From: an uncultured virus (IMG/VR IMGVR_UViG_3300020042_013559)
Lineage: Duplodnaviria; Heunggongvirae; Uroviricota; Caudoviricetes
DNA length: 64,000 bases
Direction: 5' to 3' (one strand)
Virus record (IMG/VR): IMGVR_UViG_3300020042_013559
In this document: positions 3,045 to 61,147 of the stretch, in pieces
Layout: the number at the start of each line of letters is the position of its first letter
Numbering within the stretch: position 1 is the stretch's first letter
Notes under the pieces: generated by a model
Database searches by the model: none
What the model was told of the DNA's origin: nothing
The model's input: only the letters and a program-made list of their open reading frames with translations
Made by a program: the position numbers and the translations under genes

Positions 3045-3129
3045 AAAATGATGTTAAATGAACCCTTATTATTGTCAATATATCTTTGTTTGAAAGGATT
3101 CGACCCTTTATAAATGATAAATAAAAGAT

Positions 3130-3348
3130 ATGGATTGGCTAGACAACTATCTGGATGGATTGGGACAATATAAAGTAACAGTTTCACCAGCAGACACTCA
3201 TGTTTGGGGAGTTAAACCCAAGCTTAATAATGTGCAACAAAAGATGCTGTTTGATGCGGCTGCACAAAGTGAATTGGAATATCGATTGCTTGTGCAAGAA
3301 GCAAGACAAGCTGAAATAGGGGGTTTAAAAGGAAAAAATGATATTTAA
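3130..3348 (+). CDS. Late gene; probable N-terminal part of the FN3 protein, separated by an inversion
   Basis: TAAATA just upstream; joins in frame to the 1715-2385 fragment if 2386-3316 is inverted. Confidence 0.6.
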   Translation: MDWLDNYLDGLGQYKVTVSPADTHVWGVKPKLNNVQQKMLFDAAAQSELEYRLLVQEARQAEIGGLKGKNDI

Positions 3349-25913: not shown

Positions 25914-26243
25914 CTATTCGGGGCGTTCCCATATCGAATGTCTTATTTGACTTAATGACAAATAATGTTTCCAATCGCTCATAGTTTTTACCTGTTCAAA
26001 AATAGATTCGCTAACACCATATCCAGTGAATTCATTTCTAAATCCCATCCATTTGCCTCTTGTATTCAATGCCTGTTCAAATGTTATATCCCTTTCAAAA
26101 GGATATCCACTCTCTCGAAAAGCAAATTCCTTTTTGCTAGTTCCCATGTTCCAAGTATCGCCTTCTATATCTTTAAGAGTTAAAACTCCTTTTTTTAATA
26201 AAAACTCTATATATTCTATTTTAGTTGTGCCGTATATGTTCAT
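25914..26243 (-). CDS. Hypothetical protein, paralog of 28367-28708
   Basis: Shared ESGYPFE.DIT.EQALNTR.KWMGF...IRHSIWE. Confidence 0.7.
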   Translation of the reverse strand: MNIYGTTKIEYIEFLLKKGVLTLKDIEGDTWNMGTSKKEFAFRESGYPFERDITFEQALNTRGKWMGFRNEFTGYGVSESIFEQVKTMSDWKHYLSLSQIRHSIWERPE

Positions 26244-26437
26244 GTATCTCCTTTTTGTTTGTTTATTATTTCCAATATTATAATCCCAAATTCAATTCCA
26301 GTTGTAAGAGTTCATGCCACTCCTTTAGCATAGCATCCCTGCTTCCCCACGCCTTTTCTATACTTCTCTTCATGTCCTATCTTAAGGGGGTATAACTTTT
26401 AATCAATAATTTTTATCATTCCCGATAAATAAACTAT

Positions 26438-27394
26438 ATGGCAAACAAGACATTTTCTTTCAAAAATGTCATGACAAGTCGAGGTGTGGCAAGTACTTAC
26501 GATGGCAGAATAACACCTGTGTTTAATTATTTGAATGTTGTAACACAAACATATCCCAATGCAGTAACTGCAGAAAACTTCGCGGCTCGCCTTCAAACCT
26601 ATATCCGCTCGGTAAATGCTTCATACACGGCAAACAATGTGCTACTTGCCTCTTCGGTTTGCTCTGATGATGTGAACGGACCCATATTTCCCAATAAAAA
26701 CAATCTGGGTCAAATGCCCTTTTCCCTAAATGCTTTTCTTGGACCTTTTATGGCAGGAGGTTTGGATGGTTATCCTCATACAGGCACCACTGGTCTTTTG
26801 GCCTATGCCTCGCACATAACTTCTGATACGGGCGGTGCTCTGCTCATATATGTTGCGCCTCACATAGGTATTACAAAAGATGGTCAAGTTGGATATATGA
26901 GACGACGCGGACAAAATTACAACGATCTTTCTGCAACTTGTGGAGCGGCTGCCGCAGCTGCTGAATGGATTCGCACCAATGGTGTGGGGGGTCCTGCTCC
27001 AGTATTTCCCGGAACAGGATTGTTGGCCAATCCTGCCGACTATCAATTCTATACTCTAGTTAAGGCAATTTACGACAATGTTGGAGCACGAACAGCCATT
27101 TGCGCCACAGCAAACTTTGGAGAGCAAATGGTATTGGCAACAGAAGCTATTCGCAGTGCTGCTTATAATATAATCACAAGTCCTGTGGGAGGCACAAGCA
27201 CCTTTAAGCTTGCCTATGATAACGCTTTTGGCCAATCCACTCCCGATGTATTTCTAACTACAGGCACATTTATTAACGTGGATGATGGTTACAAAGCTTA
27301 TGCGGATGTCGCCAATTTCCTCAAATACAACCCCACCACGGGGTTGTTTGATGATTACACAACACAATTCAAACAAGAATTATATCCAGACTAA
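26438..27394 (+). CDS. LCIB/LCIC-family beta-carbonic-anhydrase-like protein 1
   Basis: SVCSDDVN; GPFMAGGLDGYPHTG.TG..AYASH; APHIGI...G..G...RRGQ; ATCGA (Cys/His/Cys Zn ligands). Confidence 0.8.
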   Translation: MANKTFSFKNVMTSRGVASTYDGRITPVFNYLNVVTQTYPNAVTAENFAARLQTYIRSVNASYTANNVLLASSVCSDDVNGPIFPNKNNLGQMPFSLNAFLGPFMAGGLDGYPHTGTTGLLAYASHITSDTGGALLIYVAPHIGITKDGQVGYMRRRGQNYNDLSATCGAAAAAAEWIRTNGVGGPAPVFPGTGLLANPADYQFYTLVKAIYDNVGARTAICATANFGEQMVLATEAIRSAAYNIITSPVGGTSTFKLAYDNAFGQSTPDVFLTTGTFINVDDGYKAYADVANFLKYNPTTGLFDDYTTQFKQELYPD

Positions 27395-27399
27395 AATTT

Positions 27400-28293
27400 A
27401 TGGCCATATCACAAACATCCTACACTTCAATCGTAACAGCAGCTTCTGCTTATCCTGGAGCTATTCTTGTAGAAAATTTTGGCAATCATTGCAAAACCTT
27501 TATTCAAACATTATGTGGTTATACTGCAGATAATGTTTTGCGAGCCGATTCTATTTGTTCAGATGATGTGAACGGACCTGCTTATTATAATGGCAATATT
27601 GGTCAAATGCCCGCTTCTTTTAATGATTTTCAAGGACCGTTTTTTGCAGGAGGCATTGGAGGATTTCCTTTCACAGGTAGTATTGGTATGTTTGCGTGGG
27701 CATCCCACGTGCAATACGTTACGGATGGTGCACTATTGTTGTTTTCTGCTCCTCACATTGGAATAACATCAACGGGTCGTCTTGGACATATGGTGAGAAG
27801 AGGTCAATCAACCGATTCCAACACATGCGGAGCAGTAGGAGTTGCAGTTCTTAGAAACACGAACACAGCTCTATCAGGTGTGCCTCCTTTGAGTTCCGAT
27901 CCTTTTCCGTTTGCCGAGGGTGGTACCGCCACAAATACTGGCAGCGGTAACAACTATCAACAGTACATTTTAAATAAAATTCTATGGGATGATACCACTA
28001 CTAGACAATCCTTAACTGCCACCAACGTAACTTTTGATAATAAAATGAAGCTGGCGACAGAATCAATTCGTCGAGCCACTTACACACAAGCCAAATCCAA
28101 TCTGTCTGCTGCTTTTGTAACAATAAATCCTTCGCTTTCTGATTTGGTTAAAGATGTGTTTGTGGTCAATGGCACATTTATTAATGTGGATGATGGCTAT
28201 CAAGCTTATATACAAATTAATAGTTTTGAACTTTATAAAACAAAAACCAATACATTTGTAACTTATACCACACCATTTACCGCATTGTTTTAA
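27400..28293 (+). CDS. LCIB/LCIC-family beta-carbonic-anhydrase-like protein 2
   Basis: SICSDDVN; GPFFAGGIGGFPFTG; AWASH; APHIGI; RRGQ; NTCGA. Confidence 0.8.
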   Translation: MAISQTSYTSIVTAASAYPGAILVENFGNHCKTFIQTLCGYTADNVLRADSICSDDVNGPAYYNGNIGQMPASFNDFQGPFFAGGIGGFPFTGSIGMFAWASHVQYVTDGALLLFSAPHIGITSTGRLGHMVRRGQSTDSNTCGAVGVAVLRNTNTALSGVPPLSSDPFPFAEGGTATNTGSGNNYQQYILNKILWDDTTTRQSLTATNVTFDNKMKLATESIRRATYTQAKSNLSAAFVTINPSLSDLVKDVFVVNGTFINVDDGYQAYIQINSFELYKTKTNTFVTYTTPFTALF

Positions 28294-28366
28294 TCAATAA
28301 TTTAGTTTTCTACTCTTGTCTTGCGCATCTTGCACCAGTTGTTTGAATTTCATGATTATAATATAT

Positions 28367-28708
28367 TTATGTTGGCAATTCCCATATTGAATGTCTTATC
28401 AAGGTTAATGACAAATGATTTTTCCATTCAGCCATATCTTTCACTTGCTGAAAAATGCTCATATCTTTCACACCATAAGCAGGGAATTCTTGTTTAAATC
28501 CCATCCATTTGGCCCTGGTGTTCAATGCCTGTTCATATGTTATATCCTCTTCAAAAGGATAACCACTTTCCAGAAAAGCCAGTTCTTTTTTACTGCTTAA
28601 TTTGTTCCATAGATTGTTTGTTATATTTTTAAAATTTAAAACTCCTTTTTCATTTAAAAACTCCAGATATTCACTTTTGTTCATGGCATTGATGTTATTG
28701 TGTTTCAT
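28367..28708 (-). CDS. Hypothetical protein, paralog of 25914-26243
   Basis: Full-length similarity to 25914-26243. Confidence 0.7.
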   Translation of the reverse strand: MKHNNINAMNKSEYLEFLNEKGVLNFKNITNNLWNKLSSKKELAFLESGYPFEEDITYEQALNTRAKWMGFKQEFPAYGVKDMSIFQQVKDMAEWKNHLSLTLIRHSIWELPT

Positions 28709-29271
28709 TTTATTTTTTCCAAATATTCATTCAATAATTCAGGGAAATTCATGCCCAATACTGTTTTTTTAATTTTATAATATTCAATATCATACATCAT
28801 GGCCGCCTGTTTTTCATCATGGTATCGTTTACAATGATATGTTTGATCATTCATTCTTACTTTTGTCATCCACATTCCTGTTCTCTTATCAAGGCATACA
28901 CCTTTATATTTGCTGCTACAACCTTTCCGTTTATCAGTATTATCCCTGTTTTCACTAGGTGTTTTTGCATGCAAATTGGTTATAACATCATTGTCTCGTA
29001 CCTTATCCCAGTGATCAATCACCATGCCCCATTCTGGCATATTTTTATGATGAAAATAATATATGATATGACTTCTTTTCAATTGATGAAATTTGCCATT
29101 ATTATCAAAATAACTTATTTGTATTCGTCCATTTGTTGAATGTTTTACTCCAATACTTTTGCCTTTTTGTTGAAGGCTATAAACTTTACCTTCCAATGGG
29201 CGTATGTCCCATTTTTGCAACATCATGTCCGGATCAGGGAATAATTTTACTATTTTCCACATATTAAGCAA
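28705..29271 (-). CDS. HNH-AP2 homing endonuclease
   Basis: VIDH.D.VRDND.ITNL; SSKYKGV; AP2 domain. Confidence 0.8.
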   Translation of the reverse strand: MLNMWKIVKLFPDPDMMLQKWDIRPLEGKVYSLQQKGKSIGVKHSTNGRIQISYFDNNGKFHQLKRSHIIYYFHHKNMPEWGMVIDHWDKVRDNDVITNLHAKTPSENRDNTDKRKGCSSKYKGVCLDKRTGMWMTKVRMNDQTYHCKRYHDEKQAAMMYDIEYYKIKKTVLGMNFPELLNEYLEKIK

Positions 29272-29839
29272 GTTCCAGATTCAATAACAGTTGTACCATA
29301 TTATTGTTTATATCATTTGGAAAATTAAGATGGGGTCGACTATATTCTCCCCATAATTCAAAAGCTGCTTTATCATATGCCCGTGCTGCATCCTGTTCTG
29401 ATTCATAATAACCAAAACTCAGATGTTTTCCCCTGTGTTGAAGACTGGCCCGCCATTTTTTGCTTTTTTTACAGGCATAATAACATACTCCTTTGTATCT
29501 GCTGCTAGTTCCATTTTTTTTAGGCATGTTTACTTGTTGCAGATTGTGATCACTGGGTTGCAGATTATCCACCCTGTTATCATTTTTAACATGATTCACA
29601 TGATCTATTTCTTCGGGCAACCAAGCGTATTTCATGTAAAAAAGAATGTCATGAATATAATAAAGTTTGTATCTGCCATTTATTGTATTTTTTAATCCTA
29701 CTCTTAGATAACCGTCTTTGTTAGGCTTGTTTAATATGGCTCGGCCCGTTTTTTTACAATATAATATGCCATTCTTGAAATCTGCCCTGAATTTGTTTTT
29801 CAGATCATTCACACTGAACCTTCGCTGCAATACTTTCAT
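29264..29839 (-). CDS. HNH-AP2 homing endonuclease
   Basis: IDHVNHVKNDNRVDNL; SRYKGV...KWRA...AARAYD.AA. Confidence 0.88.
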   Translation of the reverse strand: MKVLQRRFSVNDLKNKFRADFKNGILYCKKTGRAILNKPNKDGYLRVGLKNTINGRYKLYYIHDILFYMKYAWLPEEIDHVNHVKNDNRVDNLQPSDHNLQQVNMPKKNGTSSRYKGVCYYACKKSKKWRASLQHRGKHLSFGYYESEQDAARAYDKAAFELWGEYSRPHLNFPNDINNNMVQLLLNLELA

Positions 29840-29930
29840 AAGGTTATATTATATTGACAGTGTTATTATTCAATTCTTTTTAATAATTTTCAGGCTAAAT
29901 AAACACCTTGAAATTTTGGTACGATTAACT

Positions 29931-42508: not shown

Positions 42509-45500
42509 ATGGCACTCAAGAATTTTACACAATTTACTCCTCAAACTGTTCTCAGCGCCACAGACTTTGTGGTGGGTTATCGCAATGTAGACGAAATACG
42601 CACTGATCTGGACAGTCTTACAGTTGCCATCAGCGGATTGCTTATTGCAAAAGGTTTCACACCAGGCGGTAGTGTTGGAACAGTAAAACGAATCAATTAT
42701 CGTTACACAATTGATCTTGGTGAAAATCTAAATGCTGTCAGTGGCATGGATGATTACGGCAATTATCTTTCATACACAGTGGGTCAGTTGGATGTGTTTC
42801 GCAATGGTGTGCATCTTGTGGATAGTCAAGATTTCATAGCAAATAACAGCACACAAATCAGAAACTTGAGCACCATGAATATTGGTGACGTGGTGGATGT
42901 GGTCACACTCAGTGCAACAGGTGTCACCATCACAAATCTTATTAGCGGAGGCGGAACTGTTTTCCAAACCAATTATCGTTACACATGTCCAACCACAGTT
43001 GCAATTGGAACCATCAACATATCTGGTGCAGACGATCTGGGAAATACTCTTCTTTATTCTTCGCCAACTTTGGATGTGTATTTGAACGGAAGTCATCTGG
43101 TCAATGGACAGGATTACTCAGCATCAAATGGAAGCACCATCACTTTATCAGAAGGATTGAGCAGCGGTGACGTGTTGGATGTGGCCACTCTCAGTGCTTA
43201 TGACATTGGTGGTTTGGGAGGAGTAAGCCGCATCATAGCAGGTCCGGGAATAATATTGAATCCCAGCAGCGGATTGGGCGATGTGACCATTACTGGAAAC
43301 ACATTTCAACTTACCGGAGGAGATATTGTTATTCCAGTGGGCAGCACCCGCACTTATAAAAAACTAAGCACTGCGTTCAACAGCATGAGTTCATATTTGC
43401 TAGATTCGGGAGAAAGTAGTGTGACATTTGCAATAGATCCTGAAGCAATTGATGAAAATGATGTGATGGTGCTGAATCATCCAAATGGTCAATTTTTTAC
43501 ATTAAGTGGATCATATCAAGAAGGATTTGTTTCCACGGGAATCAATCCTGTGACAAACGTGCAAATGGCAACAGGAGCTGCTCTTAGTGCAACTTTCACT
43601 TTTGACGACACACTGACTAATCCTCTAGTAAATGATTATGTCTGCATATGGTATGTTAGTGGAGCCAAAGCTATACAAAATGTTAGTTTGGGAGCTGCTC
43701 AAGCAAGTGGACAACCTTCATTATATTCAGGTTATAATAGTAACTTAGATTCTACATTAAACGGGAATGGCGAATCTTTGCTAACCAGTGGCGCTTATGT
43801 TGTTTATTCTGTTTTGCGAGATTCAACAGCAGGTGCAACTTTGTCTGGAACTTATCAATCACTTTCTGGAGTTGTAACATATAGAAGCAAATATGGAGCT
43901 ACAACACTCAATCAGTTTGATATTAATTTATCAAATACTGCAGCCCCAGACGGAACAACAAGTCTAGCCACATTTGCGAGTGCAGATCGAAGACGTATAT
44001 TCATGGATTATGGAACACCTGAAGCATGGAAAGGAAACAGAATAATAGGCGCAACAGGAAGTACAGATCACACACTCACATTCAGTGATGCTCGAGCCAC
44101 CAACACATATTTGAATCGGGGTGATTGTTTGTTGATTTTAAATCAAGTGGCTGTTGTTAAAGAGGTATTTGGCACCAATACGTGTATTGTTACAGGACTG
44201 ATAAGATTTCCCATCCCACTTGGCTATACCACCACATATGCAAGTCTTCCTGCTGCCATGCAAACCCAAGGATTTTATTACATGGTGAATAGTCGTTTGG
44301 ATTATTATTATGGATCTCACAGGGTTGCTGCTCGATCAGGAAGCAGTGTAACTATTGAAGTGTGCCAAACAGTATGCGGAGGATTAAGTAGTTCAGCAGC
44401 TACTCAAGGAGAATCATTTTTTCCTCTTCCTCGTTATGGTGTGAGATCTTTGGGTAGTAAAGATACTGACATCGTCAGCAATGACCTGTTTCGTTTCAAC
44501 AGAAGCAAAACTGAAAACAAAGTTTTAAAATCGATAATAAATTTAAAAGCTAGTCCTGGATTGGTTGTATATGGAAGCAGATTAAATTTTGATAGCTTGG
44601 TTTTCAACATGCAACAAAATCCAAGTGGATATAGTCCCGATTCAGGAATTTATTCTTCAATTAATAATACAGGAATGGAGTTTGGATCTTCTGTTGGAAC
44701 AAATACAAACACAACCATAAACGCAAGTTCAGATATAACAATGTTGCATGTGGTGGTAAATTATTCTTTAAGTTCACAAAAAAATGCATTTGGAATAATT
44801 GCACGTAACAATACATCATTGAATTCCAACTTTTTGACATTCAATTCACAACCTAAACCCAATTTGATCACAGAACACACACTTTCTGATGGCAACTTTT
44901 ATTTAAAAGTACCAACGAATTTGACTCTTGTTCAATCAAGACTAACCTCAAAATATCTTGCGATGAATGGCGGGGGCAACCTTGCGGCTCGAGGAGCTCT
45001 TACTACAGATTCAGATTCTTCAGTTGTACTTTCTTACACGTATATAAAAAATACAAACATATATCCTTTCTTTTTTGACGATACAAGTGTGGAAATGAGA
45101 GGCACAATTATCAATAATGTGGGATTTTATGGGGATTATATTGGCGCTAATTACCCAAACACTAGTTATTATTACGATTCTAATACTCGAGGCGCAGCTA
45201 TAGAAAATTGTGCAAATCCAGTTATTTTTGGTTGTCTCCATATTGGGGGGTTGAAATCGCTTATACCAGGTTTTGCTTTTGATGCTTGTAATGGTGCTTA
45301 TATGCTGGGTGTTGCAGTTTGGAATTGCGCTCAACCCAGCGGCTTTTCATCTTATGGTGGAATTACGTTCAATAGTTGTATAGGCAGTCTGCTTTATTTT
45401 AGTTTTATTAGTGATAGTGCTTCAGGTTCCACCTATGGGGGTGTTGGTCTAACAACAGGAGGCAGTTTAAAGATATGTGATACTGCATTTTCCAGAGGAA

Positions 45501-45796
45501 GTTTTGGTCTTTCTCTTGCAGACAACTCAGATATAACTTACGTTTGGGGTGGCACAAGAAATACTACGTTTCTTTATAACAACACTACAATTAGTGTAGG
45601 ATCAAATACAAGATTGAGTTTGGACACTTTTGGTGTATTTAATTATTTGAATTATTTGTATGTTTTGAATGGTTATAATTCAACAGCAAGCCTTACTAGT
45701 GTTCTTTTAGGAGGTGTTCCCAATACCACATTTAGTGGCATAACGCAAAATGCAGTCGCATGGGCAGGTACGAATTCTTTTTTGAGATACACATAA
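42509..45796 (+). CDS. Tail fibre/spike protein with duplicated N-terminal module and beta-helix-like C-terminus
   Basis: 1095 aa, rich in S/T/G; two NYRYT...SG.DD.GN.L.Y...LDV..NG.HLV modules; followed by a chaperone gene. Confidence 0.75.
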   Translation: MALKNFTQFTPQTVLSATDFVVGYRNVDEIRTDLDSLTVAISGLLIAKGFTPGGSVGTVKRINYRYTIDLGENLNAVSGMDDYGNYLSYTVGQLDVFRNGVHLVDSQDFIANNSTQIRNLSTMNIGDVVDVVTLSATGVTITNLISGGGTVFQTNYRYTCPTTVAIGTINISGADDLGNTLLYSSPTLDVYLNGSHLVNGQDYSASNGSTITLSEGLSSGDVLDVATLSAYDIGGLGGVSRIIAGPGIILNPSSGLGDVTITGNTFQLTGGDIVIPVGSTRTYKKLSTAFNSMSSYLLDSGESSVTFAIDPEAIDENDVMVLNHPNGQFFTLSGSYQEGFVSTGINPVTNVQMATGAALSATFTFDDTLTNPLVNDYVCIWYVSGAKAIQNVSLGAAQASGQPSLYSGYNSNLDSTLNGNGESLLTSGAYVVYSVLRDSTAGATLSGTYQSLSGVVTYRSKYGATTLNQFDINLSNTAAPDGTTSLATFASADRRRIFMDYGTPEAWKGNRIIGATGSTDHTLTFSDARATNTYLNRGDCLLILNQVAVVKEVFGTNTCIVTGLIRFPIPLGYTTTYASLPAAMQTQGFYYMVNSRLDYYYGSHRVAARSGSSVTIEVCQTVCGGLSSSAATQGESFFPLPRYGVRSLGSKDTDIVSNDLFRFNRSKTENKVLKSIINLKASPGLVVYGSRLNFDSLVFNMQQNPSGYSPDSGIYSSINNTGMEFGSSVGTNTNTTINASSDITMLHVVVNYSLSSQKNAFGIIARNNTSLNSNFLTFNSQPKPNLITEHTLSDGNFYLKVPTNLTLVQSRLTSKYLAMNGGGNLAARGALTTDSDSSVVLSYTYIKNTNIYPFFFDDTSVEMRGTIINNVGFYGDYIGANYPNTSYYYDSNTRGAAIENCANPVIFGCLHIGGLKSLIPGFAFDACNGAYMLGVAVWNCAQPSGFSSYGGITFNSCIGSLLYFSFISDSASGSTYGGVGLTTGGSLKICDTAFSRGSFGLSLADNSDITYVWGGTRNTTFLYNNTTISVGSNTRLSLDTFGVFNYLNYLYVLNGYNSTASLTSVLLGGVPNTTFSGITQNAVAWAGTNSFLRYT

Positions 45797-45797
45797 T

Positions 45798-46217
45798 ATG
45801 AAAATAATAGTAACACAATCAAATAATGTTTTTGGACCTGTTGGGGATGATATCACACCTGAATTGCTGGGTTATGCAAACGAACCTTACAGCAACATAT
45901 TTTTTCCAATTTTAACACCTTTAAAAAGTGAACAGGTTGCAGTGTATGTAGACCCTATTGATCCTGCAAGAAGCATTTACAAAAATATTTTAATCAATCC
46001 TTGGACATATTGGAATAACGATACAAAACTAGCCAGCATTCGTTTGCAAAGGAATTATCTATTGAGTCAAACAGATTGGACAGCATTGAATGATGTGCCT
46101 CTTTCTCCAGAAGAGAAAACGGCTTATGAAAATTATCGGCAACAACTGAGGGATTTTCCAGACGTTGTTGATCTGGATTTGCCGATTGAAGAGATAATCT
46201 GGCCAACCAAACCATAA
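45798..46217 (+). CDS. Tail fibre assembly chaperone
   Basis: IR..RN.LL..TDW....D.PL......YRQ.LRD.P......WP..P. Confidence 0.88.
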   Translation: MKIIVTQSNNVFGPVGDDITPELLGYANEPYSNIFFPILTPLKSEQVAVYVDPIDPARSIYKNILINPWTYWNNDTKLASIRLQRNYLLSQTDWTALNDVPLSPEEKTAYENYRQQLRDFPDVVDLDLPIEEIIWPTKP

Positions 46218-46227
46218 ATAATAATAT

Positions 46228-48927
46228 ATGAGCAACGCACGTGATCTAGGAAATGCAGGCCGGGGAATTAATTTAGATAGTTTATCTAATACAATTCTGG
46301 GTCAGGATGCTCTAGCTTGCAACACCACAGGAAGCTGCAACACAGCTTTTGGAAATAATGCCCTCACTTGCAACACTTTCGGATTCAACAACATTGCTGT
46401 TGGGGGTAATGCTCTCCGTTGCAACACCACAGGAAGCTACAACATTGCTGTTGGAGTTAATGCCCTAGAGTTTAACACCAGCGGATGCGCTAACACTGCT
46501 GTTGGGGATGGTGCTCTCCGTTGCAACCTCAGAGGATACGACAACGTTGCTTTTGGAGTCGATGCTCTCGAGTGCAACACTGATGGATACTACAACACTG
46601 CTATTGGAATCAATACACTCAGGCAAAACACCACAGGAACATGTAACACTGCTGTTGGATTTAATGCCCTTCGTTGCAACACCACAGGAGCTGCCAACAC
46701 TGCTATTGGATATAATGCTCTTCTTTACAACACCACAGGATGCAGTAACACTGCTGTTGGGGATGATGCCCTCCGTTGCAACACCATAGGAAAGGAAAAT
46801 ACTTCTATTGGAGTTAATTCCCTCATTTACAACACCACAGGATGCAGTAACACTGCTGTTGGAGTTGCTGTTCTTGCTTGCAACACCGTTGGATCTCAAA
46901 ACACTGCTGTTGGATATACCGCTCTCTCTTACAACACCACAGGATGCAGTAACACTGCTGTTGGAGTTTTTGCCCTCTATTGCAACGACACAGGAAGAGA
47001 CAACACTGCTGTTGGAACTAATGCCCTTCTTAACAACACGACAGGCTTTCGAAATACAGCTTTTGGAACCAATAGTTTGTATGATAACACCGCAGGAAAG
47101 TGCAACACTGCTCTTGGATATACCGCTCTCTCTAACAACACCTTGGGGGATTTAAACACTGCCGTTGGAGATAGTGCCCTCTGTAACAACACCACAGGAT
47201 GCAGTAACACTGCTGTTGGAGTTCAAGCCCTCTTTTGCAACACCACTGGTAGATGGAACACTGCAGTAGGAGCCAATGCCCTTTGCGGAAATACCATTGG
47301 AACCGATAATGTGGCAGTTGGATATAATGCTTTACTTTGCAACACTACGGGATACCAAAATGTTGCTGTTGGAAGCGGCGCTCTATGCTCAAACACATCT
47401 GGTTATGATAATGTGGCGGTTGGAACAAATGCCATGTTTAATAATACGAATGGTTATTATAATGTTGCGGTTGGAAGGTGTGCTTTGGGAAAGAATATTG
47501 ATGGTGGCTACAATACCGCTATTGGAACTTTTGCCCTCCTGTGCAATACAACCGGCGGAGGCAATAACGTTGCATTCGGATATGGTGCTCTATGTCTTAA
47601 TCAAGCAGGATGTTATAACGTAGCTGTTGGAACCAGTTCTCTTGCCAGAAACACCTTTGGATGCAGAAACGTGGCAGTTGGTGAAGGAGCATTGCAATGC
47701 AACACCACCGGGGATTCTAATATTGCTATAGGGACGTGTGCTGCATCCTGCAACGATACAGGTTTTAGCAATGTTGCAATTGGGCTTAATTCCATGTTTT
47801 GCAACACGACAGGATTCCAAAACACGGCTGTTGGAAATGCTTCTTTACAGAGAAATAGCATAGGAGTTTCAAATGCTGCTTTTGGAGCTAATGCCCTCAC
47901 TTGCAACACCACAGGAAACAGCAACACTGCTCTAGGAACTGGTGCCCTCACTTGCAACACTATAGGATGTACTCTCGTTGCTGTTGGAGCTAATGCCAAT
48001 CAATGCAACATCACCGGAAATAATAATGTTTCTGTTGGAGTTAATTCCCTCTATCGCAGTACCACAGGAAGTAACAACACTGCTGTTGGAACGAGTGCTT
48101 TTTCTGGTAATGTGAATTACATCAATAGTAGTGCTTTTGGTTACGACGCACAACCTACAAACAGCAATCAAATTAATTTAGGAGGGTTAGATGGTTCCTC
48201 CAACCTTCCAGCAGTTCGAGGTGGAACATATACCACCGTATCAGATTGCCGGGATAAAGCAGATATTCGTCCCACAGTTCTTGGATTGGAATTTGTCAAC
48301 AAAGTGCAGCCCGTAGATTATAAATGGGATATGCGAGCTGCTTATTATGTTGATGAAACTTATGTTGAAGATGAAGAATATACTGATTATGAAATCAGTT
48401 ATCAAACTGAAGAATATGTTGAAAAAGAAAATCAAATCATTAGTTATAAAGATGTAGAATATGTTGAAAAAGAAAATCAAATTATCGGTTATAATGATAA
48501 AGATTTTGGAGACGGTGTAACGTTTAAAGAACCTGTATTTGGTTTAGTTGATGTGACCCGTACTCGTCAAGAACCTGTTTATGGTTTGGTGGATGTTACC
48601 CGCACCCGTCAAAAACAAATTCGCACTCCTGTTACCAAAACACGGCAAGTGGAACGCACCCGACGTGTGTCAGTTCCAAAAGATGGTAGCAAAAAACGCA
48701 ACCGTTATCATCATGGTGTAATTGCTCAACAAATCAAACAGGTTATTGATCAAACCGGAGTTGATTTTGCCGGTTATCATGATGATAGTTTTACCGGAGG
48801 GGGCGACATTATAGCAGTTGGTTATAGTGAATTTATCGCTCCTCTTATCAAATCAGTACAGGAATTGCATGAATTGATCAAGCAAAACACCACTTTGATA
48901 AATGAACTTAGCAGCAAGATAAGCTAG
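46228..48927 (+). CDS. Trimeric tail fibre/adhesin with 14-17-aa NTAVG..AL.CNTTG repeats and a C-terminal peptidase S74 intramolecular chaperone
   Basis: Roughly 40 repeats; SD.RDK.DI...LGL.FV....PV.YKW; HHG.IAQ; Y.EFIAPLIKSVQEL. Confidence 0.88.
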   Translation: MSNARDLGNAGRGINLDSLSNTILGQDALACNTTGSCNTAFGNNALTCNTFGFNNIAVGGNALRCNTTGSYNIAVGVNALEFNTSGCANTAVGDGALRCNLRGYDNVAFGVDALECNTDGYYNTAIGINTLRQNTTGTCNTAVGFNALRCNTTGAANTAIGYNALLYNTTGCSNTAVGDDALRCNTIGKENTSIGVNSLIYNTTGCSNTAVGVAVLACNTVGSQNTAVGYTALSYNTTGCSNTAVGVFALYCNDTGRDNTAVGTNALLNNTTGFRNTAFGTNSLYDNTAGKCNTALGYTALSNNTLGDLNTAVGDSALCNNTTGCSNTAVGVQALFCNTTGRWNTAVGANALCGNTIGTDNVAVGYNALLCNTTGYQNVAVGSGALCSNTSGYDNVAVGTNAMFNNTNGYYNVAVGRCALGKNIDGGYNTAIGTFALLCNTTGGGNNVAFGYGALCLNQAGCYNVAVGTSSLARNTFGCRNVAVGEGALQCNTTGDSNIAIGTCAASCNDTGFSNVAIGLNSMFCNTTGFQNTAVGNASLQRNSIGVSNAAFGANALTCNTTGNSNTALGTGALTCNTIGCTLVAVGANANQCNITGNNNVSVGVNSLYRSTTGSNNTAVGTSAFSGNVNYINSSAFGYDAQPTNSNQINLGGLDGSSNLPAVRGGTYTTVSDCRDKADIRPTVLGLEFVNKVQPVDYKWDMRAAYYVDETYVEDEEYTDYEISYQTEEYVEKENQIISYKDVEYVEKENQIIGYNDKDFGDGVTFKEPVFGLVDVTRTRQEPVYGLVDVTRTRQKQIRTPVTKTRQVERTRRVSVPKDGSKKRNRYHHGVIAQQIKQVIDQTGVDFAGYHDDSFTGGGDIIAVGYSEFIAPLIKSVQELHELIKQNTTLINELSSKIS

Positions 48928-48961
48928 GTTGATAATATATAAAATCTGATATAATAGCCTG

Positions 48962-49927
48962 GTGATTGATGTTCATTCGCTTCTTGCCAATCATTTGGCA
49001 AAATTAACTTACAACAAGTATAATCAAACATATACAGCATGTTGTCCCATATGCCGCGAAGGTGATTCTTGGCTGAAAAAGAAGCGTTTTTATTTTTATA
49101 ATAAAACCAACAGCTGTTATTGTTTCAATTGTGGTTACAGCGCAAAATTATATAAATTATATTATGATTTGACTGGTAAAATGATGGGTAAACAGGGTTT
49201 TGAAAGTCCCAGATTCATTGAGGAAAAAGAAGCTCCCACTCCTGAAATACTTCCAAAAGACAGCATTAACATTTTTGAAAGCACCCAACTTTACAAAAAC
49301 ATGCATAATCCCATTTTTAAAAAAGCCATACAATATGTGTGTGACCGACGATTGCATTCCAGCATAAACCGACCCAAAACATTCTGGTTCAGTTCAGTTG
49401 ATTTTATCCATAAAAACAGATTGATCATACCTTTTTATGATTTGGACGATAAAATAGCTTATTATCAAAGTCGTAAACTGCCAGGAGATACTAGCGATTT
49501 GCCCAATTATCTGAGCAAAAGCGGTGGTGAAAGAAGTCTTTTCAACATCAATCGGGTGAACGAACAACCCTACGTTTTCATATTTGAAGGTCCTTTAGAT
49601 GCATGTTTCATTCATAACGGAGTGGCCGTGAGCGGAATCAATAAAAGCCGAAACAGTCTTACTGACAAACAAAAAGAGCAACTCAGCAACTTTCCTCTGC
49701 ATCAAAAAATATGGGTACTAGACAATCAAAACAAGGATACTACAGCCCGGGAAAAGATGAAGCAGATCATTGAAACTGGTCAGAAAGTGTTTGTTTGGCC
49801 CAAAAATATAATTTATAAAGATTTTAATGAAATGTGCATGGGATTGAAACAAAACAAAGTGGATGTGAATTTTGTTTTACAAAACACTTTTCAAGGACAT
49901 AAAGCCCGGGCAAAAATGATGATATGA
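48962..49927 (+). CDS. DNA primase (T4 gp61-like)
   Basis: CPIC..G.S...K...CFNCG zinc finger; RLIIPF; IFEGPLD; LDN...D; KDFNE. Confidence 0.88.
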   Translation: MIDVHSLLANHLAKLTYNKYNQTYTACCPICREGDSWLKKKRFYFYNKTNSCYCFNCGYSAKLYKLYYDLTGKMMGKQGFESPRFIEEKEAPTPEILPKDSINIFESTQLYKNMHNPIFKKAIQYVCDRRLHSSINRPKTFWFSSVDFIHKNRLIIPFYDLDDKIAYYQSRKLPGDTSDLPNYLSKSGGERSLFNINRVNEQPYVFIFEGPLDACFIHNGVAVSGINKSRNSLTDKQKEQLSNFPLHQKIWVLDNQNKDTTAREKMKQIIETGQKVFVWPKNIIYKDFNEMCMGLKQNKVDVNFVLQNTFQGHKARAKMMI

Positions 49928-50353
49928 TTATTTTTCGCTCTTGCTGGCGATAAGATATGCTTTTAGACGTTCGCTAAGACCACTCAATTCAACGCAAACA
50001 CGAGCAATCTTTTTAGTTTCACTCTTGGCAACTTTTTCAAAAAGCGTGTCGCAAGGAGCCATATGCAACTGAGTTTGAACTGAATTAATGTCGGGACTGT
50101 TTAGATATTCCAGAAATTTATCAATGTTTCTTACCCATGTTTGCAGTTCAATGGCTTGAGCAGAATTGGTTTGACGACTGGCCATTTGCTCCCGGGTAAC
50201 TGCTTTAACATCAAATTCTTGAGGAACTGTGCCTTTATCCAATTCAGCTTCCATACTGGTCCTGTCTTCTGAAGGTTGAACAGCAGGAGCTTCCAGTTCA
50301 GGTTTGTCCTGTTCTTTTATAATATTTGAAAATAATTTGTTAAATATGGCCAT
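49928..50353 (-). CDS. Late hypothetical (putative head-associated) protein
   Basis: TAAATA upstream; F.KLF..II.E leader. Confidence 0.6.
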   Translation of the reverse strand: MAIFNKLFSNIIKEQDKPELEAPAVQPSEDRTSMEAELDKGTVPQEFDVKAVTREQMASRQTNSAQAIELQTWVRNIDKFLEYLNSPDINSVQTQLHMAPCDTLFEKVAKSETKKIARVCVELSGLSERLKAYLIASKSEK

Positions 50354-50387
50354 ATTATTATTTATTATAAAGGTAAATAAAATATAT

Positions 50388-50747
50388 ATGTTTAATGAAG
50401 ATAGCCAGATGATTTATAATCGCTGGGTTAGTGGCATAGCCAGTCGGGAGCTTAAGGGTCAAACACTTACAGTTGATGATTTAATTCAAAAATACTCACC
50501 TCAAGGAAGCACACTGGCTCCTAAAAATCTTCCTTATCCTCTGGACAAGATTTTTGAAAGTTTGGCAGATAATTTTGTAAAATTAAGCAACAGCAAGATG
50601 ATATGTGAAATGAGCAAGAATAACCCTCTTATTGGCAACAAGAAAGAGAAATTGCATCAATTGGAACAGGTTATCGACAAGATCAATCAGGCACAAAAGA
50701 TACTTGAAGAAACTGTAACCCCTCTAAATAAGATTTTAGAGGGTTAA
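50388..50747 (+). CDS. Late hypothetical protein
   Basis: TAAATA upstream. Confidence 0.6.
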   Translation: MFNEDSQMIYNRWVSGIASRELKGQTLTVDDLIQKYSPQGSTLAPKNLPYPLDKIFESLADNFVKLSNSKMICEMSKNNPLIGNKKEKLHQLEQVIDKINQAQKILEETVTPLNKILEG

Positions 50748-50748
50748 A

Positions 50749-51165
50749 ATGCTATTCAGAACAATATTATTCGTTAGTCTTCCTTTGACCAGTATTGGAA
50801 TTTTATATTCCCTTAATGTAAGGAATTTTTGGACATATTTTTTCACATCTTGTTTCACAGTGGGACTGCAGTATGCCATCGATTTTGCTTTTCATAAGTT
50901 TGCCATAGTAAGATATGGTTTGCGTATCAAGGAAACTAATTTGCAGATTGAAAAAGAGTATAATAAACGAGGAGTAGAACTGACCTGTCCTTGTGCAGAG
51001 AAAAGCAAATGCTTTGTGCCAATTGATCTGAATCAAGGAACCAGCTACAAATGCCTTCAATGTGACAAACAAATATCAGTTTATGTCAAATTGGGCACTG
51101 CCCTTGAAACTGAACCAGTGGTGGTGCAATCTTTGGAAGCTCTGCCCCTAAATCTGAATGAGTAA
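50749..51165 (+). CDS. Two-TM protein with C-terminal Zn-ribbon
   Basis: Hydrophobic N-terminus; CPC and C..C motifs. Confidence 0.6.
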   Translation: MLFRTILFVSLPLTSIGILYSLNVRNFWTYFFTSCFTVGLQYAIDFAFHKFAIVRYGLRIKETNLQIEKEYNKRGVELTCPCAEKSKCFVPIDLNQGTSYKCLQCDKQISVYVKLGTALETEPVVVQSLEALPLNLNE

Positions 51166-51595
51166 TTTATTATATCAAATCGCAAAAAGTGTTAATAGCA
51201 CAGCAGTTGTGCCTGTTTCCACTGTAAAAAATGAAAATTGGGCACAGGAATTTGATCAGGAACTGAGTGAATTTTTTGTTAAAAAAGGTCCAGAATATTA
51301 TAATTTATATAAATTATTTCGAACCAAAAAGAAAAATTTAAATGATAGTGAACGCATCATTTTGGATATTTTTGAAGAAATTTTTCAGGAATATAAAAAG
51401 TTAAGCATAAAAAATCCAGAAGGTATAGACCGAAAAAGTTTCGTGGTGCATAAAATTTATGAATCTGTCAATGCAGCATTCAGCATCATGACTGAATTGA
51501 AGATTAAACTTGACGTTCCTCTGCTTTTCTGTATTTTGGCTGCATATGTTCAACAATACATCCACGATCAAAACACAAACCGAAGACAACAATAA
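51158..51595 (+). CDS. Hypothetical protein
   Basis: ORF track. Confidence 0.55.
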   Translation: MSNLLYQIAKSVNSTAVVPVSTVKNENWAQEFDQELSEFFVKKGPEYYNLYKLFRTKKKNLNDSERIILDIFEEIFQEYKKLSIKNPEGIDRKSFVVHKIYESVNAAFSIMTELKIKLDVPLLFCILAAYVQQYIHDQNTNRRQQ

Positions 51596-52217
51596 TCAAA
51601 AAGTAATTTTATCCATCCCGATCAATAATAAAAATTCAAAGATCGAGATGAGCGCTGATGAATGGCGAAACATAAGCGACAAAGTTGCTCGCAATTTAAA
51701 AAATCCTCATCTTGAAAAGATGAAAGAAAACATTTCCATGGACATGATGTTTTATGGTCGCAGAGCAAAGCTGAATGTTTCTGAAAAGGAATTAAAAAGT
51801 TTATGTGAAATTATTATGGAATTGAGCGATGATAATCCCAAAAAGATTTCTGATAATGTAGTGATGGAAATGAATCATCAAAACCGTCCGGCCCGTGTTG
51901 AAATGAGCAAAAGCGAGATGGCTCGTTGGCTTTGTTTGGTGGAAAGTATTGATCTTATTGAAAAGAAATGCAGCGAATTCAATGTGAACATGTCAGATGA
52001 TTTTTGGATACAACCGATTGCTATTCAGAAATATATGGATAGTCGTTTTGAAACAATGTTGGATGAAGTGAATCATCACGAATTTGGAATTGATACTAAA
52101 AAAGCAAATTTGGATATTTTGAAAAGAAAGAAATATCAGGAAGATGCGTCTGAAAAAGAAGATGAAGAAGCTGATTTACCTGAAATTCAATTGAATCAAT
52201 TATCTCGCACATCATAA
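51510..52217 (+). CDS. Hypothetical protein (start uncertain)
   Basis: ORF track; internally repeated MS..E module. Confidence 0.55.
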   Translation: MTFLCFSVFWLHMFNNTSTIKTQTEDNNNQKVILSIPINNKNSKIEMSADEWRNISDKVARNLKNPHLEKMKENISMDMMFYGRRAKLNVSEKELKSLCEIIMELSDDNPKKISDNVVMEMNHQNRPARVEMSKSEMARWLCLVESIDLIEKKCSEFNVNMSDDFWIQPIAIQKYMDSRFETMLDEVNHHEFGIDTKKANLDILKRKKYQEDASEKEDEEADLPEIQLNQLSRTS

Positions 52218-52963
52218 GTTCCATACACTTCATCTTGTCCAGAACCTTCATAATTAAAAACAAATCTATTAACAATTTGAGGAGCACTGCTTTGAACATT
52301 TTCTGACCGAGGATTGGTCGGTACGTTTCCACTTACAGTTGCACTGAGTGTGCCATAACCAGTGTTGTCCATGACTTGTTGATTGCCTTTTTCATTGGGC
52401 AGATTCACTTCTTGTGAATAATCAAATCTCTTCATTTTGAGCAACCATACATAATGTCCGGCCAATGCATTGATTTTGCTGTTTTCACTATCCAGTCTTT
52501 GGGTTATTTCAAACAATTTTCCATCCCGATCTCCTGGTCTGTCATTTCCATACTCCAGAAGTTTAACAACGTCACCGCTTTTAGGTTCCTGATTTTGACC
52601 AAAAACACTATAAAAGCTGCTGATATGAACAAATGCAGTAATATAATCCTGACCATCAAATCCGAATTTATTTAAAGTAAGATTGTCTTCATCTAGTGTG
52701 ATGGCCATCACAATCTGCTTGGGAGTGGGCCAGCTTGTGATTGGATCTTCACCATAAATGTTGTCGGCACTCAATGTGCTGTATGGATTTTGCCAATAAT
52801 TTATCTTTTGACCATAAAGATCTATCTGTTCCCGCCAATAGTTGCCGATCACATCCCGTTCACATTCATTGTTTTCTTTGTCAGTAAAACGCAGAACACT
52901 GGCTGTGTAATTGAAAGGATACACAGAAACACAACCTGGTCCCAAATATCGATCAACGCTCAT
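52196..52963 (-). CDS. Neck/head-closure protein (T4 gp14-like)
   Basis: E.I.LYG....Y; .D.IYGED; .NKFG; EP..GD.; FEI; F.YS.E. Confidence 0.7.
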   Translation of the reverse strand: MSVDRYLGPGCVSVYPFNYTASVLRFTDKENNECERDVIGNYWREQIDLYGQKINYWQNPYSTLSADNIYGEDPITSWPTPKQIVMAITLDEDNLTLNKFGFDGQDYITAFVHISSFYSVFGQNQEPKSGDVVKLLEYGNDRPGDRDGKLFEITQRLDSENSKINALAGHYVWLLKMKRFDYSQEVNLPNEKGNQQVMDNTGYGTLSATVSGNVPTNPRSENVQSSAPQIVNRFVFNYEGSGQDEVYGTYDVRDN

Positions 52964-54033
52964 TCACTCTCCAATACATATATATTATTTTGTTTTCTTA
53001 TACTTACAGATGAACGACCAAGCTTGACTGGTTTTTCACTTAAATTCACATTGTAAAAAGTTGCAATTTGCATGGCCCGGGGTTCGCTGATTATTCTTCT
53101 TCCTTTGCTTTTTTTCAAAACACCAACTTCAGCAAATGTGTCGGTATTTTGATGCATGAGCGGAACTGTTCGAGAATGTTTACGCAATCCAGGATCCCGT
53201 ATAAAAGGTTTTTGATGACGGGCTCCCCGTTTCTTTTTGTCAAACATTTGAGATGTTTGACTTTTTGTTCCTATCAAATCACTCACAAAAAGATTAGGAA
53301 TACCGCTGTTCCATGTTTGTTCTGTGTAAATTTTATCATAAGATTCATTTTTCAAATCGTTTAGTTTATCCAGGTAACCAGCATCCCTTAATTTTTTGAA
53401 AACAAGATTTTCAATGCAAAAATCAAATATGGTGCTTTTATCTGTCATACATTCTTTTCTGGAATCTGCCAATTTTTCTCTTATTTTTTTAGCCCGGTTA
53501 TGAATTTGGCGGAAAATGATACGGCAATCACTTTTACGGAAAAGATCAATCAGTGAATCAATTTCATTTTTAAAATGATCATATTTTTTCAATACATTTT
53601 GCTCATCAATTTCCGGTGGATTATATGAAGCTTTTTGAAGCCATTTGTTTTTTAAAAGACTATAAACAGGTTTGGTGGCATATGGTTTTACTGATGTATC
53701 TTCAATGTATATTTCAATAGGATGATCCTTTAAAACGATATCATGGCTCAAATTCCATTTATATTTTTCTGCATCAAAAAGCTGTTTGACCAATTCAGGT
53801 TTGGCTTTTACTTTGCTGAAATCTATTTTCAAATGCAGATCAATATCACTCTTGTTTGTATATGTGTAATTGGTTAAGGAACCTGTAAATTCAATATCTT
53901 CCAATGGTGCATTTGTTTTTAAACTACGATAAAACTCCAATGCAATATCAACAAGCTTGGAAGATACTTCTTTATTTAAATGGAAATCTTTCCAAAATTT
54001 TTTATTTAGCTTGGAATGGTATTCAAATGCCAT
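52960..54033 (-). CDS. Pol-beta superfamily nucleotidyltransferase
   Basis: TGS..NY....SDIDLH; IEIY; ENLVFK.LR; TAAATA upstream. Confidence 0.75.
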   Translation of the reverse strand: MAFEYHSKLNKKFWKDFHLNKEVSSKLVDIALEFYRSLKTNAPLEDIEFTGSLTNYTYTNKSDIDLHLKIDFSKVKAKPELVKQLFDAEKYKWNLSHDIVLKDHPIEIYIEDTSVKPYATKPVYSLLKNKWLQKASYNPPEIDEQNVLKKYDHFKNEIDSLIDLFRKSDCRIIFRQIHNRAKKIREKLADSRKECMTDKSTIFDFCIENLVFKKLRDAGYLDKLNDLKNESYDKIYTEQTWNSGIPNLFVSDLIGTKSQTSQMFDKKKRGARHQKPFIRDPGLRKHSRTVPLMHQNTDTFAEVGVLKKSKGRRIISEPRAMQIATFYNVNLSEKPVKLGRSSVSIRKQNNIYVLESE

Positions 54034-54046
54034 ATAGTTATTTAGT

Positions 54047-54082
54047 CAAAAAAAAACCCCCGTTGATTAGACGGGGGTTTTT
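54047..54082. terminator. Intrinsic terminator
   Basis: A-tract, CCCCCGT/ACGGGGG stem, T-tract. Confidence 0.8.
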
Positions 54083-54097
54083 TATTATATATTTTTA

Positions 54098-54715
54098 TCA
54101 GTTGGCTTGGAACAGGTCTTGATCACCTTTTCCGCCACCCTTGATCACTCCAGGAACGACGTTGGCTTTTCCTTTTGTGCTTGTGGGTGCACCACCTTTG
54201 ACTCCAGATCCAACAAGAGCGTGGCCCCGTTCGCCTTCGGTTCCAACCTTGTCAGTTACTTTGGAATCACCACCCTTGCCGTTTTTGGCAAGACTGGTCA
54301 ATGTGCTAGCAACTTTGTTGCTGCCGGAAGAAACTTTTGATAGTTCTTGACCTTTTTTGGCATTAACAAGAGCATGACCGAGATCTTCTGCTTCGATCTC
54401 TTCAGTAGCAATTTCTTCATCTTCATCTTCGCTTTCATCATCGCTCTCTTCAGCGTCTTCATCTGAAGATGACATTTCATAATCTTCATCAGATGCAGAT
54501 TCATCACCACCGACATCATCGGGGATAAGATCAAGGCTTTGAAGCTTTTGCAAAAGTTCAATTGCTTTGGCGAGATGCTCTTTAGGAGTCAGCTCTGTTT
54601 CTTCACTAGTGGCTGCCGGGGCGACATCGGCGGTGCCGGGTTGAGCGCCAGTGATACCAAGTTCAACGTCGTCCTCGGACATCACAGCTTCATATAGTTT
54701 GTCGAAGTTACTCAT
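54098..54715 (-). CDS. Acidic late protein (possible prohead core/internal protein)
   Basis: MSNFDKLYEAVMSE leader; D/E tract; TAAATA upstream. Confidence 0.6.
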   Translation of the reverse strand: MSNFDKLYEAVMSEDDVELGITGAQPGTADVAPAATSEETELTPKEHLAKAIELLQKLQSLDLIPDDVGGDESASDEDYEMSSSDEDAEESDDESEDEDEEIATEEIEAEDLGHALVNAKKGQELSKVSSGSNKVASTLTSLAKNGKGGDSKVTDKVGTEGERGHALVGSGVKGGAPTSTKGKANVVPGVIKGGGKGDQDLFQAN

Positions 54716-54720
54716 ATAGA

Positions 54721-55326
54721 TTATTTACTGTTATCCTTTCTATTTTTTGTACTTTTATTTACAAAACTGAAAAATTCTTCAAGTGCTTCTGTATGACCAT
54801 TGACTGCAGCCACCGTCAACAAATTCACAAAGTTTCTTTTACCCCATATTGTCTTATATTCACTAAGACGTGTAAAAGCTTCATGCTTATCATCTTTTAC
54901 AAGCTCATTTATGATCAAATTGACATTTTTTGTGTTAATAACACTTTCGTTGGCGCTACTGAGTTGTTCTGGTTGAAAATAGTTGTCTTTTTTAAATTTT
55001 TTCTCTTTAACATCAATAGGTTCAGCCAATTGTTCAGTATCAGGACCACTGTCCTTATGAGCAAAATCTTTTAGTTTGGGTTCAGAAACTATTTTCTTAT
55101 CTTTAACCAATTCAAAAGCTTGCACTCCACCTTTTCCTGGTTTTGTGCCGAATTTGGCTTTAGGATCAGTTGTTTTCTTGCTTTTCTTTTCTAAAACTAC
55201 TTCATCTTGTTGATGTGCAGCATTTTCCAGAAGCATTTTATGATAAACTGCTCCAATGTCCAATAATGTGTTTGCGTTACTTTTAGGCATACCGTATTTC
55301 TTAATATATTTACTCTTTTGGTTCAT
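54721..55326 (-). CDS. Late hypothetical protein
   Basis: TATAAATA upstream. Confidence 0.6.
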   Translation of the reverse strand: MNQKSKYIKKYGMPKSNANTLLDIGAVYHKMLLENAAHQQDEVVLEKKSKKTTDPKAKFGTKPGKGGVQAFELVKDKKIVSEPKLKDFAHKDSGPDTEQLAEPIDVKEKKFKKDNYFQPEQLSSANESVINTKNVNLIINELVKDDKHEAFTRLSEYKTIWGKRNFVNLLTVAAVNGHTEALEEFFSFVNKSTKNRKDNSK

Positions 55327-55343
55327 ACGTTAAGTATTTATAC

Positions 55344-57011: not shown

Positions 57012-57023
57012 TTAAATAATATC

Positions 57024-57587
57024 ATGGCAGCCACATACAACCAATCCATGCTCAATAAGGCACGGAAAGACAAGTTTTTGATGGTTTTAACACCCTCCAA
57101 GTTTTTAAGAGATAAAATCAACAATTTGGAAAGAGGAAATGACACTATAAATTTGGATAGTTTTCAATTTTCAGTGTTTGGTATTGATGTTCCAGATATA
57201 ACCATTCCTCAAGTTGAAACCAGTTATGGTGCACAAGTTTTAAAAGTCACAAGTTATTCCCGACCTTCTTTTAATAATGTTAATGTTAAATTCACTGTGG
57301 ATAATAATTACAATAATTATTGGTTCATTTACAGTTGGATGAATCTTTTAAATGATGATAAAACAGCTATTCCAAATCAAGGTAGTTATCCTCCTTTATT
57401 GAATGATTATTCAACCACCATAACTATCTATGGGTTAGATGAATACAACAAAAATAAAATAAAATTCGAATTTCACCAAGTAATACCTGTAAAACTAGGA
57501 ACCATAGCTTATAACTACAGAGATAGCGGAGAAGTTGAAAGTAGTTTCGAATTCAGTTTTTTTCAACTTATAACAAATCTTCTTTAA
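57024..57587 (+). CDS. Tail-tube-fold protein (gp3 tail terminator/tube-like)
   Basis: F.V....VP.I.I; F.VD..Y.NY..I..W; F.F....P..LG...Y motif; position before the sheath gene. Confidence 0.6.
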   Translation: MAATYNQSMLNKARKDKFLMVLTPSKFLRDKINNLERGNDTINLDSFQFSVFGIDVPDITIPQVETSYGAQVLKVTSYSRPSFNNVNVKFTVDNNYNNYWFIYSWMNLLNDDKTAIPNQGSYPPLLNDYSTTITIYGLDEYNKNKIKFEFHQVIPVKLGTIAYNYRDSGEVESSFEFSFFQLITNLL

Positions 57588-57629
57588 AAAAAATTAAAAA
57601 AATTATTCAGAATAGAATAAATAATTTAT

Positions 57630-59999: not shown

Positions 60000-60016
60000 T
60001 AATTGATTAATTGTTA

Positions 60017-61139: not shown

Positions 61140-61147
61140 TCGGGCTT

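Follow-up and report, generated by a model that had tools for sequence, protein, structure and literature searches.

A tandem pair of LCIB/theta-type carbonic anhydrase genes in a freshwater T4-like phage: a candidate particle-borne zinc enzyme

The tandem gene pair and its zinc site

The window, meaning the whole 64,000-nucleotide stretch of viral DNA analysed here, derives from a T4-like myophage with terminase, sheath, tail tube and baseplate genes (Pfam, PHROGs), and its tail block is syntenic with that of a complete 217-kb record, G002. The nearest record, G001, matches window positions 43113–61860 only, and PF18599 was not found in it. Nine of the 14 sequencing runs containing at least half of the searched words are labelled freshwater or lake, and one run may be the sample from which the window came.

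Between two flanking repeats, the window carries two LCIB-family genes in tandem on the plus strand, separated by 5 nt and headed by a TAAATA element (Table 1). The original prediction had described two adjacent paralogs with shared motifs, the element lying 6 nt before the first ATG, and both the coordinates and the sequences bear this description out: the products, P0001 and P0002, are 43% identical across 294 columns, and the C-S-D, PHIG, CGA and GG..G.P.TG motifs are all present in each. Its assignment of the pair to the LCIB family with a zinc site likewise holds, through Pfam, PDB alignments, the modelled fold of P0001 and the invariance of the site residues. Specifically, the Pfam model PF18599 (LCIB_C_CA), which had been named as a check, matches P0001 with 105 bits (E = 4.7e-30) and P0002 with 102 bits (E = 4.2e-29) against a cut-off of 25, while a PDB sequence search returns eight matches for each protein, all of them LCIB-family, the best cited for P0001 being 6kfs (E = 5e-20).

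Table 1. Positions of the features discussed, in window coordinates, with the predicted site residues of both proteins.
Feature	Position	Strand	Description or basis
TAAATA, T4-late-type promoter element	26426..26431	+	6 nt before gene 1 ATG
Gene 1 (P0001, 318 aa)	26438..27394	+	LCIB/theta-CA domain from about residue 30
Gene 1 N-terminus, short and variable (residues 1–29)	26438..26524	+	pLDDT, leader comparisons
Gene 2 (P0002, 297 aa)	27400..28293	+	Leaderless LCIB/theta-CA domain
P0001 site residues			Zn: C75, H142, C168; others: D77, H126, R156; alignment with PDB entries
P0002 site residues			Zn: C53, H119, C143; others: D55, H103, R133; alignment with PDB entries and P0001
Left flanking repeat, contains 109-aa ORF (25914–26243)	25926..26255	-	Repeat comparison
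Right flanking repeat, contains 113-aa ORF (28367–28708)	28379..28711	-	Repeat comparison
TAAATA and free-standing 72-aa handle copy, cargo-less (ORF 3130–3348)	3118..3348	+	Family heading gene 1 in nearest relatives

Both proteins align with the PDB entries through a Cys-His-Cys zinc triad and further Asp, His and Arg residues, and the metal ligands of theta-CAs are reported to be one His and two Cys (PMC8132391). An alignment of 122 homologs, made up of both window proteins together with the top 120 of 322 matches, shows no variation at C75, D77, H126, H142, R156 or C168. The six residues are also kept in 75 of 75 phage rows of a thinned locus set, whether first, second or single copy, the conservation of C-x-D there being built in because that motif had served as a selection filter. 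In the alignment with 5b5y, which has a 15-residue offset, our own mapping places S76 at PtLCIB4 S47 and H126 at PtLCIB4 H88, the positions mutated in 5b60 and 5b5z, and R156 would correspond to the catalytic Arg as described in PMC5876011. The zinc ligands and the catalytic Asp, His and Arg look intact in both copies, neither of which appears degenerate; for some LCIB proteins with a complete zinc motif, a lack of in vitro activity has been reported (PMC5876011).

Both genes are under purifying selection, with dN/dS values of 0.10–0.52 for gene 1 and 0.05–0.21 for gene 2 (six pairs each), so that all 12 comparisons stay below 1; the top values, 0.40 and 0.52, come from gene 1 against its nearest strains and have few changes behind them. 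Neither window protein shows a strongly hydrophobic N-terminal or transmembrane stretch. P0002 carries two extra cysteines in its first helices, at residues 31 and 39, which are also kept in several relatives and form a possible disulfide that would fit an outside location.

Promoter element, expression and local arrangement

TAAATA stands at like spacing before the sheath, tail tube, fibre and spike genes of the window. Window-wide, its count shows no overall enrichment (75 found against 73.9 expected), and an element ending no more than 15 nt from the ATG precedes 20 of 74 ORFs, compared with about 1% of random positions. Just five of these 20 ORFs have a structural annotation, and in relatives TAAATA is also found upstream of ribonucleotide reductase (NrdA/NrdB) and K/E-rich genes; it is the mark of a phage promoter class that is not confined to structural genes. 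The late timing proposed for the pair is an assumption taken from the T4 late consensus. The element mostly ends 4–9 nt before the ATG, for example at 42495, 46215, 57013, 57618 and 60535. Because this gap leaves no room for a Shine-Dalgarno sequence, late mRNAs may be near-leaderless. Scans for sigma-70 promoters and terminators gave chance level only.

The K/E-poor, tail-like composition noted originally is confirmed, with K+E at 4.4% in P0001 and 4.0% in P0002, next to 3.5% in the tail fibre and 4.9% in the tail spike of the window. The tail spike gene (46228–48927, plus strand) contains a repeat region of about 51-nt periodicity and a Peptidase_S74 chaperone domain.

Lake RNA contigs from all three runs examined, belonging to three studies, cover parts of both genes, and one of them spans the gene junction (26906–27459). 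Positions 25924–26185 and 28282–29300 have no RNA contig cover, whereas a DNA run covers all 30 bins. These data hint at expression, at the level of contigs whose strains may lack the flanks.

The two flanking repeats are direct, 74% identical over 333 nt, and encode proteins that are 64% identical; two HNH-AP2 endonuclease genes come after the right repeat. At a related locus, L081, whose pair is 97.5% identical, an HNH-AP2 gene lies upstream and the pair occupies a site matching window 29901–29907, with the junction falling at a TAAATA-bearing stretch. The flanking repeats and the arrangement at L081 mark the LCIB pair as a predicted mobile cassette.

A virus-only branch and its cellular relatives

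An alignment search found 104 relatives in viral contigs and 360 in metagenome contigs (80 of each being retained), and an alignment search of 185,579 genomes found 52. Scanning the viral contigs with P0001 alone gave no match, whereas the alignment succeeded. P0001 has 0 matches in 50,697 GenBank records of cultured phages, neither P0001 nor P0002 matches PHROGs, and no phage LCIB or theta CA was found in literature titles and abstract openings. In quick IQ-TREE and FastTree runs, which included no named algal row, a long branch (support 100; 1.0–1.35 changes per site) separates the phage sequences from 42 cellular rows, and a wider tree of 112 of 145 representative sequences splits the phage members off again with support 100. 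The pair belongs to a virus-only LCIB branch, apparently undescribed, that is spread over large freshwater phages.

The phage survey proposed for the pair found it at 26 of 161 viral or metagenome loci, the remaining 135 of 161 carrying one LCIB ORF (loci are redundant across collections). Pair-bearing loci fall into two lineages with genes 3–8 nt apart, and all listed second genes begin at the domain and are leaderless. In the lineage of the window, 17 of 18 first genes have a second gene, the exception stopping at a contig edge. The pair may derive from one origin or two. Between L003 and L090 the first genes are 96% identical and the second genes 82%, a partner swap; strict partner co-evolution was rejected, since identities correlate (rho 0.54) yet swaps occur. 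Any partner interface would have to be tolerant, because partner genes are shuffled between strains.

The closest parallel in gene number is Chlamydomonas LCIB/LCIC (5k5w, 5b5x), likewise two family paralogs that may form a heteromer (PMC5876011, PMC10096703). The phage duplication is independent, with both genes nested in the virus branch (support 100), the structural identity is 15–17%, and the photosynthetic context is missing. Because the duplication occurred inside the virus branch, P0001 and P0002 are not LCIB/LCIC orthologs; the original analogy fails on this point, and the likeness between the two pairs reads as convergent. A part in CO2 concentration, the other side of that analogy, fares no better: the photosynthesis gene PF00124 is absent from five related records, two of them complete, while a Synechococcus control was positive, and bestrophin or PEP carboxylase neighbours occur at 0 of 161 viral or metagenome loci.

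Such neighbours are a feature of the cellular family, with bestrophin nearby at 17 of 51 cellular loci and PEP carboxylase at 9 of 51. The named cellular relatives found are mostly from Bacteroidota and Balneolota; these are the closest among those found, with 25–46% best-segment identity and the same catalytic set, and they differ from the phage proteins in being handle-free, about 230–250 aa long, 11.5% K+E and set among metabolic neighbours that phages lack. In Bacteroidota, LCIB-family genes stand directly behind bestrophin or PEP carboxylase (L178, L181, L183, L169, L203 and others), and the bestrophin–LCIB adjacency echoes the algal BST–LCIB link. The cellular family looks like a bicarbonate-supply CA, a setting that the phages would have lost. 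As the scan patterns were phage-derived, these groups are candidate donors of the phage gene at most.

PtLCIB4 and other theta-type CAs (5b5y, 6kfs, 9vzj) have PF18599 and the Cys-His-Cys zinc motif in common with the phage pair, and their fold compares with the P0001 model at TM 0.63–0.66 by query and 0.81–0.84 by target. By our own mapping, P0001 also has a Ser where PtLCIB4 has S47 and a His where it has H88. The phage proteins differ from these enzymes in their 22–24% structural identity, virus-only branch and inserted loop, in the His that P0001 has for Phe at position 114, in very low K+E and in the handles of phage relatives. Diatom CAs have been surveyed in PMC8119650.

Subunit models, N-terminal handles and possible function

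The AF2 model of P0001, built from the 122-row alignment, has a pLDDT of 80 overall, with residues 1–27 below 50. Foldseek returns eight matches for it at E ≤ 0.001, all LCIB entries, with 6kfs (TM 0.66/0.83) and PtLCIB4 ranking on top and ordinary beta-CAs after them; no BFVD match was found at E ≤ 0.001. Because AF2 without an alignment gave no usable model of P0002 (pLDDT 30), the fold of the second protein rests on sequence.

A P0001–P0002 heterodimer model scores 0.76, against 0.01 for the best of three controls, and passes a mark that 51 of 78 solved complexes attain, compared with 2 of 108 mismatched pairs. At least 36% of contacts are common to the runs, with a partner pLDDT of at least 80, and the confident contacts set P0002 residues 78–84, 90–96 and 102–103 against P0001 residues 76–78, 156–159 and 169–170, as expected for a modelled partner completing the active site. 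Because the solved structures of the family contain two modelled chains, this pass speaks for likeness only, and the score probably reflects likeness to solved dimers, which the predictor may have memorised. In pair-bearing phages, the chances are somewhat better than even that the second, leaderless protein would pair with the first as a heterodimer; within the family a heteromer is not needed, because 135 of 161 loci show a single LCIB ORF. The two-subunit complex of the original prediction is left plausible by the passing model and weakened by the solved dimers that the pass may mirror and by the single-gene state of most relatives. Structure prediction, which had been proposed as a check, supports the LCIB fold of P0001 and leaves the heterodimer plausible.

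Low K+E extends over the whole phage branch, the domain averaging 2.5–4.3% across the 75 rows of five phage groups, compared with 11.5% for the 42 cellular rows. In G002, where the median is 14.5% over 164 ORFs, 27 of the 164 lie at or below 7.5%. Scanning 25 of these (two more crossed locus borders), alongside six of the 131 high-K+E ORFs as a control, gave for the 23 other than the pair seven head, tail or connector PHROGs, one RCC1, seven unknown-function families and eight with nothing; none of the 23 is a metabolic enzyme. Low K+E is also found in a secreted PEP-CTERM protein of G002. The late element and the structural-type composition suggest displayed cargo, but neither is specific to virion proteins. 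At G002 179565–184582 (L225:19565 to L226:4579), a PEP-CTERM protein, an N-methyl pilin-type gene and a FecR-domain gene form a cluster that appears to be a host-surface module, and the PEP-CTERM and pilin-type genes hint at a host compatible with Planctomycetota, Verrucomicrobiota or kin.

The 96 distinct N-terminal extensions of relatives sort into nine groups. Four groups reappear at the same loci on Pro/Thr-rich or fibre-like ORFs that are not LCIB genes; in two of these four, the partner ORFs carry RCC1 propellers and gp9-like ends. For two other groups the matches, to structural and tail fibre genes of Flavobacterium phages, are weak (E 0.2 and 0.5), and the group 5 leader matches nothing in PHROGs, Pfam or neighbouring ORFs. 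The leader of about 75 aa on gene 1 of the nearest relatives has no usable Atlas match; hhalign (94%, E = 1e-7) links it to a handle family that heads 55 longer proteins, 11 of them with FN3, BspA-LRR, CBM5/12 or LamG calls. Relatives of the free-standing handle copy in the window (Table 1) run on into FN3, LRR, CBM or LamG cargo. Elsewhere in the family, the LCIB homolog P0357 runs into Ser/Ala repeats, which in our own reading look like fibre repeats, and P0356 (776 aa) has the domain inserted in a large protein with no other Pfam or PHROG match; P0356, P0357 and P0268 have no cultured-phage match.

Compared with 3837 N-termini, that of P0001 weakly resembles a different handle family (E = 0.0095), and it gives no significant match to the handle of its nearest relatives (shuffle p 0.04–0.62). 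Searched for elsewhere with degenerate patterns, its 29 residues gave 0 hits for two patterns and seven unrelated ORFs for a third. Surface display is likely for the phage branch as a whole, judged from relatives, and evenly poised for the window pair, whose anchoring is less sure because 29 residues replace the handle. The virion association proposed originally gains from the handles that relatives have in common with adhesin-type proteins, and loses from P0001 having no recognisable handle of its own.

The reading we prefer, held tentatively at a little under even chances, is that the two genes form a late cassette encoding a zinc enzyme that is borne on the particle and has the chemistry of a carbonic anhydrase. 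A single transcript from TAAATA would give both proteins, each folding as an LCIB/theta-CA subunit (gene 1 modelled, gene 2 aligned) that binds zinc through Cys-His-Cys and also has an Asp/Arg pair, plus a His predicted to face the partner subunit. The subunits would dimerise, in pair-bearing phages most likely as a heterodimer of the first protein with the leaderless second. The first subunit of relatives bears a portable N-terminal handle that is also present on adhesin-type domains of the same phages, and through this handle the dimer would be attached to the exterior of the particle. CO2 hydration is a moderately probable reaction for the predicted site, and in lake water, with its weak buffering, the enzyme would speed CO2 + H2O <-> HCO3- + H+ at the surface of the particle or of the host. 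The resulting local shift in pH would help the phage to attach to respiring cells or to enter them. As to purpose, we prefer, as a speculation, local control of pH or bicarbonate where the phage meets the host surface.

A particle-borne hydrolase of the Zn-hydroxide type that acts on a different substrate, such as an esterase stripping O-acetyl or carbamoyl groups from the host capsule, for which tailspike deacetylases offer a parallel, is ranked second because position 114 is His in 61 of 75 phage rows and Phe in 42 of 42 cellular rows. P0001 follows the phage majority here. The surroundings of the site are remodelled further by an inserted loop near it, with Q92 and P94 in all 75 phage rows, along a branch of 1.0–1.35 changes per site. 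The P0002 stretch 90–96, the counterpart of the remodelled region, lies in the modelled interface, carbohydrate-binding domains are among the handle partners, and PMC8132391 refers to the diatom theta-CA paper where it lists reports of esterase activity, all of which favours this alternative. However, every residue used for CO2 hydration is kept, and the wider pocket is a supposition, and P0002 retains Phe (F91), which leaves the hydrolase rather unlikely.

The pair could also be an ordinary auxiliary metabolic gene set, in which a soluble CA acts in the infected cell or is freed at lysis and provides bicarbonate for host carboxylases. Consistent with this are the cellular relatives adjoining bestrophin (17/51) or PEP carboxylase (9/51), the metabolic genes behind TAAATA and the window pair having no recognisable handle. 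Phage-borne carbonic anhydrases are likewise reported as viral auxiliary genes from sponge vOTUs (bioRxiv 10.64898/2026.01.21.700432); these differ in being beta-class, near bacterial MAG genes and in some cases fused to sulphate transporters, and the relevant section of that study does not mention theta/LCIB. A cytoplasmic enzyme is hard to square with repeated grafting to varied handles and with fibre-like repeats, branch-wide K+E is down to about one third of the cellular value, and the metabolic neighbours are kept at 0 of 161 loci, making this explanation distinctly improbable.

A non-catalytic adhesin, whose CA fold or open Zn site would bind anionic host-surface groups, has in its favour the handles held in common with adhesin-type domains and is nevertheless very unlikely, as all 122 homologs keep the catalytic Asp, His and Arg, whereas a pure binder would be expected to drift; vaccinia D8, the viral precedent, has lost its Zn ligands. 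D8 likewise places a CA fold on a virus surface (PMC4256255) and differs in its alpha-CA fold, membrane anchor, chondroitin sulfate binding and unrelated sequence family. Least probable is a head-internal protein with a capsid-targeting leader, packaged and injected with the DNA: late proteins with a common K/E-rich leader do exist (31 ORFs, 16 distinct, mean K+E 19.6%), but LCIB proteins account for 0 of the 31 (by a self-defined motif), their composition is the opposite, and their handle partners are surface-type domains.

The LCIB/theta family has been studied almost solely in algal CO2 concentration. The pair described here appears to be an intact, expressed-looking representative of an undescribed viral branch of this known enzyme family, and the virus-only branch, purifying selection and many handles point to an unrecognised job on or around lake phage particles. 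By annotation these genes would pass for auxiliary genes of carbon metabolism, though they are particle-protein-like. The pair also provides a small, expressible natural test of heteromer against homomer, an open question for LCIB/LCIC (PMC10096703). A displayed, active theta-type CA, forming a heterodimer with one handle per dimer and turning respiratory CO2 into a proton signal, or else a new surface hydrolase, might gate or aid infection, a possibility that we place on the unlikely side. In that case a phage-particle enzyme would act on inorganic carbon or pH instead of cell-wall polymers.
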